A stretch of DNA of 64,000 bases from Saprospiraceae bacterium (GTDB lineage Bacteria; Bacteroidota; Bacteroidia; Chitinophagales; Saprospiraceae): positions 38,621 through 102,620 of the forward strand of contig JBGTBR010000056.1 in assembly GCA_041749255.1 (NCBI GenBank), written 5' to 3'. Position 1 is the stretch's first letter. Each line of letters starts with the position of its first letter. The notes beneath the pieces are model-generated. The model saw only the letters and a program-made list of their open reading frames with translations, was not told the DNA's origin and ran no database searches. Position numbers and translations under genes: made by a program. This document shows, piece after piece, positions 27,882-44,607 of the stretch.

Positions 27882-28022
27882 GTCATTGGCTTCGCGTCAT
27901 TTGGCTACGCCGCCATTTGCTCTATTCCGTCATTTGCGCTACGCGCGTAATCTTGTTATGAATGGATCCTATTGCCAACTGCATACTGCATACTGCCCAC
28001 TGTCAATGCCAACTGTATACTG
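27882..28022 (+). repeat. Core A copy 1 (conserved non-repetitive core plus flanking GTCATT and CTGCATA repeats)
   Basis: Contains GCTACGCGCGTAATCTTGTTATGAATGGATCCTATTGCCAACTGCATACTGC, which differs from copy 2 at about 4 positions by eye. Confidence 0.85.
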
Positions 28023-28424: not shown

Positions 28425-28555
28425 GTCATTTGCTGCGCGTCATTGGGCTTCGTCGTCATTTGCGCTACGCGCGTTATTTTGTTATGAAAGGAACCTATTG
28501 CCAACTGCATACTGCCAACTGCATACTGCCCACTGCTAACTGCCAACTGCATACT
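28425..28555 (+). repeat. Core A copy 2
   Basis: Contains GCTACGCGCGTTATTTTGTTATGAAAGGAACCTATTGCCAACTGCATACTGC. Confidence 0.85.
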
Positions 28556-36557: not shown

Positions 36558-36641
<84 letters not shown>

Positions 36642-36806: not shown

Positions 36807-36896
36807 GCAGTATGCAGTATGCAGTATGCAGTTGGCAATAAGTTCCTTTCATAACAAAATAACGCGCGTAGCGCAAATGACGACGAAGTCAAATGA
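36807..36896 (-). repeat. Core A copy 3 (inverted)
   Basis: The reverse complement reads GCTACGCGCGTTATTTTGTTATGAAAGGAACTTATTGCCAACTGCATACTGC, one mismatch from copy 2 by eye. Confidence 0.85.
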
Positions 36897-36956
36897 ACTC
36901 TCACCTCCTCACCTTAACTCTTGACTTTCCGACCTTCCGACTTTCAGACTTTCAGA

Positions 36957-37474
36957 CCATTTTGCTCGTAGCTCGTAGCTGGTTACAAATGGTTTTAGTT
37001 TTAGTTTTAGTTTTGGTTAATTTTCAATTTTCCGACTTCCGACTTTCAGACTTTCAGACCTTCGACCTTCAGACCTTCGACTTTCCGACTTTCGACCTTC
37101 CGACCATTTTAGCTCGTAGCTCGTAGCTGGTTGCAAATAGTTTTAGTTTTAGTTTTAGTTAATTTTCAATTTTCAATTTCCGACTTTCCGACCTTCCGAC
37201 TTTAAGACTTTCAGACCATTTTGCTCGTAGCTCGTAGCTGGTTGCAAATGGTTTTAGTTTTAGTTTTGGTTTTGGTTAATTTTCAATTTTCCGACTTTCG
37301 ACTTTCAGACTTTCGACTTTCAGACTTTCGACTTTCAGACCTTCAGGCCATTTTAGCTCGTAGATGGTAGCTCGTAGCTGGCAGCAAATGGTTTTAGTTT
37401 TAGTTTTAGTTTTGGTTTTTCATTGGTTAACTTTCAACTTTCAACTTTCGACCTTCAGACTTTCGACCTTCAGA
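36957..37474. repeat. Higher-order tandem array of four superunits (about 147, 112, 132 and 127 bp)
   Basis: Each unit starts with CCATTTT(G/A)(G)CTCGTAG..GCTGG(T/C)(T/A)(G/A)CAAATGG at 36957, 37104, 37216 and 37348. TTTTAG/TTTTGG, AATTTTC and (C/A)GACTTTC runs follow. Confidence 0.9.
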
Positions 37475-37529
37475 CCGTTTACCGTTCACTGCTCACCATT
37501 CACCGTTTTTCTACCTGCCAAAGGCGAAG
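37475..37529 (+). repeat. Module B copy 1
   Basis: CCGTTTACCGTTCACTGCTCACCATTCACCGTTTTTCTACCTGCCAAAGGCGAAG. Confidence 0.8.
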
Positions 37530-44153: not shown

Positions 44154-44241
44154 GCAGTATGCAGTATGCAGTTGACATTTGGTAATAGGATCCTTTCATA
44201 ACAAAATAACGCGCGTAGCCAAATGAAGCGAAGCCAATGAC
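44154..44241 (-). repeat. Core A copy 4 (inverted, most diverged)
   Basis: The reverse complement reads GCTACGCGCGTTATTTTGTTATGAAAGGATCCTATTACCAAATGTCAACTGCATACTGC. Confidence 0.8.
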
Positions 44242-44300: not shown

Positions 44301-44356
44301 CCGTTTACCGCTCACTGCTCACCGTTCACCGTTTTTTCAACCTGCCGAAGGCGAAA
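44301..44356 (+). repeat. Module B copy 2
   Basis: CCGTTTACCGCTCACTGCTCACCGTTCACCGTTTTTTCAACCTGCCGAAGGCGAAA. Confidence 0.8.
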
Positions 44357-44553
44357 CCCTCAACCTCATTTTAGCTAGTAGCTCGTAGTTGACAAATGAT
44401 TTTGGTTTTAGTTTTGGTTTTAGTTAACTTTCAACTTTCAAACTTTCAAACTTTCAACTTGTTCCCGACCTTCAGACTTTCCGACCTTCAGACTTTCCGA
44501 CCTTCAGACTTTCGACTTTCAGACTTTCGAATTTCAAACTTTCGACCATCTGA

Positions 44554-44607
44554 CCGTTTACCGTTCACTGCTCACCGTTCACCGTTTTTTCGACCTGCCG
44601 AAGGTAA
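44554..44607 (+). repeat. Module B copy 3
   Basis: CCGTTTACCGTTCACTGCTCACCGTTCACCGTTTTTTCGACCTGCCGAAGGTAA. Confidence 0.8.

Follow-up and report, generated by a model that had tools for sequence, protein, structure and literature searches.

The TIGR02436/PF05635 family includes the protein of 23S-rRNA intervening sequences (IVSs) and resembles the DGR accessory protein Avd. In the ORF-bearing IVSs of Coxiella burnetii and Leptospira, a small PF05635-family ORF (S23p) lies between arms whose complementarity allows a long stem, the element is excised by RNase III, and its sporadic distribution suggests horizontal transfer (PMC4990558); PF05635 is also related to the DGR protein Avd (PMC10053308). 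Intergenic assemblages of various 6-8-nt tandem repeats, among them the LSSR, STRR and TAACTGA repeats, are found in Bacteroidetes, Cyanobacteria and Beggiatoaceae, where they are strain-specific and patchy (PMC4679880). REP/BIME elements, which are associated with RAYT, consist of hairpin units that share a word at the 5' end, lie outside genes in large numbers and build composite mosaics (PMC2817692). Finally, the DNA mini-hairpin GC-GNA-GC (GCGNAGC), known from the single-strand origins and priming signals of phages and plasmids, is extraordinarily stable, and its RNA form is much less so (PMC13037366). Here we compare with these systems a repeat family from the intergenic DNA of a Saprospiraceae bacterium.

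The window, by which we mean the whole 64,000-nt stretch of contig C56 that was analyzed, comes from a Saprospiraceae MAG (G000, the source genome below; 4.63 Mb in 91 contigs, 37.8% GC) that was assembled from a hot-spring metagenome. A preliminary description of the window had singled out a conserved, non-repetitive sequence of about 50 nt, which we call Core A, as the part of several repeat mosaics most likely to be under selection. All four copies reported there were recovered on the strands given (Table 1); for the 52-mer, which matched exactly at copy 2 and with one mismatch at copy 3, 100 shuffles gave an expectation of no chance match. The three loci that hold them are intergenic mosaics of short tandem repeats whose words run head-to-tail in a single orientation; TRF repeat rows of variable copy number adjoin every core, in agreement with the preliminary description, and the centre of the core is itself non-repetitive. 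The most diverged copy, at 44 kb, has its first heptamer out of register and lacks the preceding TCGTCATTTGC / GTCATTTGC unit. The palindrome ACGCGCGT pointed out earlier is present, but the structurally relevant palindrome is the mini-hairpin of Table 1, which belongs to the left half of Core A; this half is the last unit of the GTCATT-arm that runs into it, and its grammar is the same in other phyla. Among the matches listed, which were the longest ones, Logan contigs of the source run confirmed the unique flanks and broke inside the mosaic, copy 1 lay inside an exact 197-nt contig, and the left junction of copy 2 was covered by near-identical contigs alone. Because the source-run contigs break within the mosaic, the exact tandem arrangement of the first locus is that of the MAG assembly.

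Table 1. Positions of the Core A copies and of their adjoining modules, counted from the first letter of the window.
Feature	Position	Strand	Remark
Core A copy 1	27938..27989	+	4 substitutions vs the 28.46-kb copy
Core A copy 2, reference 52-mer	28464..28515	+	exact match
Core A copy 3	36821..36872	-	1 substitution vs reference
Core A copy 4	about 44168..44219	-	~5 substitutions
GTCATT-arm of copy 1	27882..27955	+	17-nt period array (TRF 27882-27944)
GTCATT-arm of copy 2	28425..28479 (C56:67045-67099)	+	three (GTCATTx + mini-hairpin) units, GTTATTT at end
GTCATT-arm of copy 3	36856..36897	-	
GTCATT-arm of copy 4	44203..44241	-	shortened
Mini-hairpin GCGC-TAC-GCGC	28462..28472	+	minus strand GCGC-GTA-GCGC, G-N-A triloop
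Linker TGTTATGAAAGGAACCTAT	28480..28498	+	non-repetitive; ATG at 28484-28486; poorly conserved among copies
(NNACTGC)n heptamer module	28499..28555	+	independent module; elsewhere behind other modules

Core A is not confined to the window. An nhmmer search of the source genome gave 65 matches. About 28 of these were partial; the 37 near-full ones all lay in intergenic DNA (37/37). A fuzzy search with the first 28 nt found 27 copies. Several sites (on contigs C1, C23, C56 and C69) hold two or three tandem copies in one spacer. The same modules, (GGTTGAG)n-GGAGGTGAGA-(GTCATTT-hairpin)n, always lie upstream, and the core is followed by NNACTGC heptamers and then by runs of CTACGAG. Since the heptamer module also stands behind other modules, the modules combine freely. 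We measured conservation as mean pairwise identity over the 37 near-full copies. Identity was highest in the GTCATTT word (96%), intermediate in GTTATTT (82%), in the hairpin GCGCTACGCGC (GCGC-TAC-GCGC; 80%) and in TTTGCC (80%), and lowest in the non-repetitive centre TGTTATGAAGGGATCG, which includes the ATG (71%), in the heptamers (69%) and in the preceding repeat unit (68%). The centre is without visible constraint, at 71% against 68-69% in the repeats that flank it. Outside the window it has diverged as fast as its surroundings, the outcome that the preliminary description had itself named as refuting its proposal, so selection on the centre is not supported. The apparent conservation of the window copies has two sources: they are part of one young subfamily, together with copies on C28, C38 and C23, and a junction cannot slip. 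Members of this subfamily are 91-94% identical over 200-250 nt, microsatellite modules included.

The left half of Core A, GTCATTT-GCGCTACGCGC-GTTATTTTG, is one unit of a (GTCATTT + GC mini-hairpin)n array. Each unit joins the 7-nt word to a hairpin of 7-11 nt with a stem of 2-4 bp. The source genome holds 63 GTCATT arrays, and the array pattern occurs 35 times. Loops are T-N-C (TTC, TAC or TGC; G-N-A when read from the opposite strand) in 119/160 units of the source genome and in 292/382 units elsewhere (74-76%). The 4-bp stem covaries between units: 82% of stem cells were paired versus 62% in shuffles, and 41 cells had changed on both sides versus 11.5 expected, a value reached in 0/500 shuffles. 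Like d(GCGNAGC), the GTCATT units place a G-N-A triloop on a GC stem, with C-G as the closing pair; on one strand they read GC-GNA-GC, GGC-GNA-GCC or GCGC-GNA-GCGC with N free and with G and A kept. We know of no tandem genomic array of this mini-hairpin beside a constant heptamer.

These arrays reach well beyond the Saprospiraceae. The exact 25-mer pattern GTCATTTGCGCTNCGCGCGTNATTT, from the left half of Core A, was present in more than 113 stretches, taken from MAGs that span several phyla and are labeled Bacteroidales, Lentimicrobiaceae, Rikenellaceae, Saprospiraceae, Balneolaceae, Calditrichaceae, Desulfobacterales/Deltaproteobacteria and Thioalkalivibrio. In these stretches, (GTCATTT + GC hairpin)n often leads on to further arrays, in which the reversed word, AATGAC, recurs with a 10-11-nt period. 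The distribution is patchy: among 400 sampled other Bacteroidota genomes, the exact 25-mer and hairpin-type arrays were absent and two genomes had one plain tandem run each, and among 40 relatives the sister species (G001) alone gave weak matches. No recurrent partner gene was found around 113 array loci, where only generic families recurred, and the linker TGTTATGAAAGGAACCTAT was absent from every other-genome locus compared. We also considered phage as a vector and rejected it, as neither the 25-mer nor the linker had a match in viral contigs (0 each). One foreign family is an element of ~450-500 nt, present in about 30-45 near-identical copies in the Bacteroidales MAG Tobar18m-G2 and a related Bacteroidota MAG (L018-L123), in which GTCATT units and the same 25-mer occur along with a unique centre (TGCTTTACTATATTCTAAGTCATTTACTTCAGGGCTTTCTGAGACGG...) and with an array of AATGAC; this element had no Rfam match.

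Arms of this kind flank a gene in intact elements. In the sister species, on a contig that matches Saprospiraceae MAG record L058, a 124-aa PF05635 gene has GTCATT words in its 5' arm and a 3' arm that reads ...AAATGAC-GCAAAGC-AAAATAAC-GCGCGAAGCGC-AAATGAC..., in which AAAATAAC-GCGCGAAGCGC-AAATGAC gives, when reverse-complemented, GTCATTT-GCGCTTCGCGC-GTTATTTT, the left half of Core A. At locus L177, from a Lentimicrobiaceae MAG, GTCATT stands 15 times on the 5' side of the gene, and AATGAC is found together with GCGCGAAGCGC on the 3' side; its protein shares 71.6% identity with that of the sister species, and each of the two matches TIGR02436. We collected 78 metagenome loci encoding relatives, of which 61 had enough flank for word counts. 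AATGAC occurred at least twice downstream of the gene at 27/61 loci and GTCATT at least twice downstream at 0/61, and the sense strand of the 3' arms held 48 G-N-A hairpins versus 1 T-N-C. The flanking word (GTCATT, GTAATT, GTAAAG or GTCATA) tracks the clade of the protein: word labels changed 11 times on the protein tree versus 23.4 times when shuffled, a value reached in 0/200 shuffles. This tracking could reflect simple co-inheritance rather than recognition.

The source genome has 12 PF05635 matches, 10 of them above the family cut-off, and 8 of these 10 genes have inverted flanking words of their own. Under a strict inverted-word score, 3/10 qualified versus 7/3472 ORFs. At five of these genes, the words belong to the vocabulary of the mosaics (GTGAACG/CGTTCAC, AAAACT/AGTTTT, CTCGTAG/CTACGAG, GGTTAAG-GGTTGAG/CCTTAAC and CTTCAGAC). 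One such word links back to the window, where the ACGGTGA/GTGAACG heptamers of Module B (44301-44356, 44553-44586 and 37474-37507) correspond to the word in the arms of a PF05635 gene, C25:62153-62455 (GTGAACG 5', CGTTCAC 3'). The surroundings of that gene, outside the window at C25:62000-75500, contain at least eight PF05635 genes or fragments amid biosynthesis-looking genes (dehydratase-like, DegT-like and, downstream of one cassette, CysD-like); all are accompanied by inverted word arrays of their own, which gives the impression that cassettes had entered a single cluster between its genes. A PF05635 gene was present in 34/41 relatives, and gene and arrays co-occurred in 23/23 genomes; because PF05635 is common in the order, this co-occurrence is not discriminating, and we rejected presence of the gene as a predictor of arrays. 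The only small non-PF05635 ORF with strong inverted word arrays on both sides encodes 140 aa (MINKDYKYSELTSKIIGCAMTVHAELGNGFQEVIYQRALE...; C67:13191-13613). From its motif, we take it to resemble a GxxExxY/PD-(D/E)XK-type protein, and it may represent a second gene family that uses the cassette design.

The GTCATT arms of the source genome have no such gene. The GTCATT-type protein has no close homologue there (the best match is 32% identical), so the arms are orphans, and as the MAG is in 91 contigs the cognate gene could lie in a gap. There was no PF05635 match in C56 or beside any core; Core A is therefore at most a remnant and not a member of a cassette. It shares a homologous arm with the intact element of the sister species, but the complementary arms around an ORF that define gene-bearing cassettes are not found in the window mosaics, which are one-armed, with words that all run one way so that nothing can fold back, unlike real cassettes. 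We found no gene relic beside Core A: a blastn-short comparison of the linker with 42 PF05635 loci gave chance-level matches, and the idea that the linker is the relic of a PF05635 gene start or end was dropped. The reverse-complemented linker has a by-eye likeness to the codons of a C-terminal ...SIGK..ND.K, which is very short, and we claim no relic from it. Because no gene relic adjoins Core A, it is from the arm that we infer descent from a decayed cassette.

The sister species also dates the mosaic. The spacer between rarA and the acyl-CoA dehydrogenase gene measures 1066 bp in the source genome versus ~260 bp, repeat-free, in the sister species, so this mosaic arose after the species split; the two spacers are too diverged for the empty-site comparison to place element boundaries. 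The genes that flank the sister-species cassette had no homologue in the source genome. A further sister-species locus (L004, 1180-1640) has the same module order, with GGTCTGAAG, GGTTGAG, GGAGGTGAG and GTCATTT-hairpins; the junction after its arm differs, and the linker is therefore lineage-specific.

Given these features, we conclude that Core A is probably the junction of an orphan arm that belongs to a family of IVS-like cassettes, and has no function of its own. In intact elements, the array arms are inverted around a small TIGR02436/PF05635 four-helix-bundle gene, with GTCATT 5' of the gene and AATGAC with G-N-A hairpins 3'. In the source genome, the arm appears to have been joined by the lineage-specific linker to arrays of GGTTGAG, NNACTGC, CTACGAG, GTCTGAAAG and AAAAC, several of which are arm words of other PF05635 paralogues, and the composite would then have given rise to the 37 or so copies between genes, frequently through local duplication in tandem. 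The four-helix-bundle protein may read the arms, or the arms may co-evolve with the protein, and the arms could fold back in a transcript or in single-stranded DNA. The copies of the source genome would descend from decayed cassettes and would persist and expand by slippage and recombination.

Compared with the systems described at the outset, the cassettes of the sister species and of the Lentimicrobiaceae share the design of the ORF-bearing IVSs, the described elements that come closest, including a sporadic distribution that suggests horizontal transfer. Unlike IVSs, they lie between ordinary genes and not in 23S rRNA helices 9, 25 or 45, and their arms are arrays of 6-7-nt words with G-N-A mini-hairpins in place of a unique 28-bp stem; Core A is moreover a gene-less, one-armed remnant. 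With the long simple-sequence repeats (LSSR) that Mrazek reportedly described in 2007, the mosaics share head-to-tail short units, variable copy number and an intergenic position, and their patchiness extends across the same phyla; unlike LSSR and STRR, Core A is a non-repetitive junction, and the GTCATT unit has a covarying hairpin. The BOX elements of Streptococcus pneumoniae, with their modular boxA-boxB(n)-boxC design, are likewise dispersed, and the copy number of one of their modules varies too, but they have no sequence relation to Core A and belong to another host phylum, and we know of no gene family associated with them. A link of PF05635 to heptamer repeats was not described in the papers found, the literature searched held no paper linking IVSs, PF05635/Avd and heptamer assemblages, and a literature search by sequence words returned primers only.

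A broader hypothesis is possible, and we put it forward tentatively. PF05635 genes with inverted arrays of a subfamily-specific word might be widespread, horizontally moving IVS-like cassettes outside rRNA, in which the protein would recognize its own word (for this subfamily, GTCATT with G-N-A mini-hairpins) on single-stranded DNA or RNA and so homogenize or propagate the arrays, the mosaics of the source genome being gene-less products. If true, this would give a mechanistic origin to the heptamer-repeat assemblages of Bacteroidota, Cyanobacteria and sulfur bacteria. If the protein does read its own flanking word, the family would be one of programmable protein-oligonucleotide recognition and would explain a widespread class of junk-like bacterial DNA. 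Core A itself is ordinary, a junction; it connects three things, namely heptamer/microsatellite assemblages, G-N-A mini-hairpin arrays and multi-copy genes for four-helix-bundle/intervening-sequence proteins.

We also asked how far the orphan-arm reading could be replaced by a working function. The preliminary description had proposed a recognition site for a DNA-binding protein, and in spirit this holds for the left part of Core A, with its 96% identical word, its stem that covaries between units and its 25-mer that is identical across phyla; it does not hold for the centre. The GTCATTT-hairpin part could then be a candidate binding array for a PF05635 paralogue (the source genome has about ten such genes) or for another factor acting in trans, and might serve in DNA organization, as a decoy or as a regulatory site, with copies kept by selection and not as debris. 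An orientation bias in other genomes is consistent with such a role: AAATGAC lies mostly on the sense strand of co-directional neighbors (40 vs 7), and a hand tally without two multi-copy MAG families still gave 26 vs 8, roughly 3:1. In the source genome, however, orientation to genes in co-directional spacers was unbiased (17 vs 14), spacer types occurred at background frequency and none of them was preferred. The cognate protein subfamily is absent from this genome, copy number and unit number vary freely, and single changes break the hairpin in many copies. We therefore regard a working binding array as rather unlikely.

A role at the RNA level, as an sRNA core or as a weak terminator or 3'-end stabilizer formed by the mini-hairpin and the following UUAUUUUGUU, is improbable. 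A terminator scan flagged TGCGCTACGCGCG with TTATTTTGTT as terminator-like in both copies of the first locus, and arrays elsewhere lie mostly in co-directional spacers, but the flagged stem has 5 pairs and a weak score, the stem overall is of 4-5 bp only, and orientation to the flanking genes of the source genome is inconsistent. Neither the window nor six foreign loci had an Rfam match for these elements in gathering or E-value mode, RNAalifold over 30 copies returned 0 pairs, and folds were no more stable than those of shuffled sequences (z +2.8 to -0.25), so the sRNA core suggested earlier is not supported. The stability of G-N-A mini-hairpins, much lower in RNA than in DNA (PMC13037366), points the same way. 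The sequencing runs containing the sequence were DNA metagenomes only. A Bacteroidota promoter, for which the consensus is -33 TTTG / -7 TAnnTTTG, was considered and rejected, as no spacing fitted this consensus and a sigma-70 scan gave weak 9/12 matches.

It is more improbable still that the units serve a RAYT/Y1 (HUH) single-strand DNA transposase, for which the preliminary description had advised looking, as REP-like substrates. Each unit does join a hairpin to a constant 5' word, the units are high-copy and extragenic, their G-N-A loops point to single-stranded DNA, and the source genome does encode one RAYT (NF047646, 93.8 bits). Its flanks, however, carry a different hairpin, TTCGAAGTTGCAAACTTCGAA (8 copies), and no GTCATT units; ten RAYT loci in array-bearing genomes are without GTCATT arrays; the most array-rich MAG has a weak, stop-containing match; and two array-bearing MAGs have none. 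The units also differ from REPs in form, with stems of 2-4 bp versus ~10, a single orientation, and neither the ~20-40-nt palindrome nor the GT[AG]G tetranucleotide. The RAYT gene itself (C23:97500-98000; L126 1207-1800, minus) is followed by a duplicate of its own 3' end and by TTCGAAGTTGCAAACTTCGAA; this is a small, separate REP-like family.

We give almost no credence to a small Cys-rich peptide: the ATG does open the Cys-containing frame described earlier (MKGTYCQLHTA...), is kept in 26/37 copies and recurs with MKGS/MKGT N-termini, but it is missing in 11/37, the ORFs range from 3 to 72 aa, the frame runs into the heptamers after ~6 codons, where 7-nt units shift it, and nucleotide conservation is here the lowest of the core, all in line with the preliminary description's own argument, from the loss of the frame, against coding.

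Two minor observations concern the surroundings of the cores. A tRNA gene (Rfam RF00005, 55 bits) lies at window positions 36558-36641, ~100 nt from the second mosaic locus, and no association of cores with tRNA genes was seen genome-wide. At four loci of the source genome, on C1, C13, C81 and C91, a second conserved, non-repetitive segment (...aaatccttttaaagtaccaacggtgcgaaatgaattct) precedes the NNACTGC arrays and forms a further junction core, where two other modules meet.
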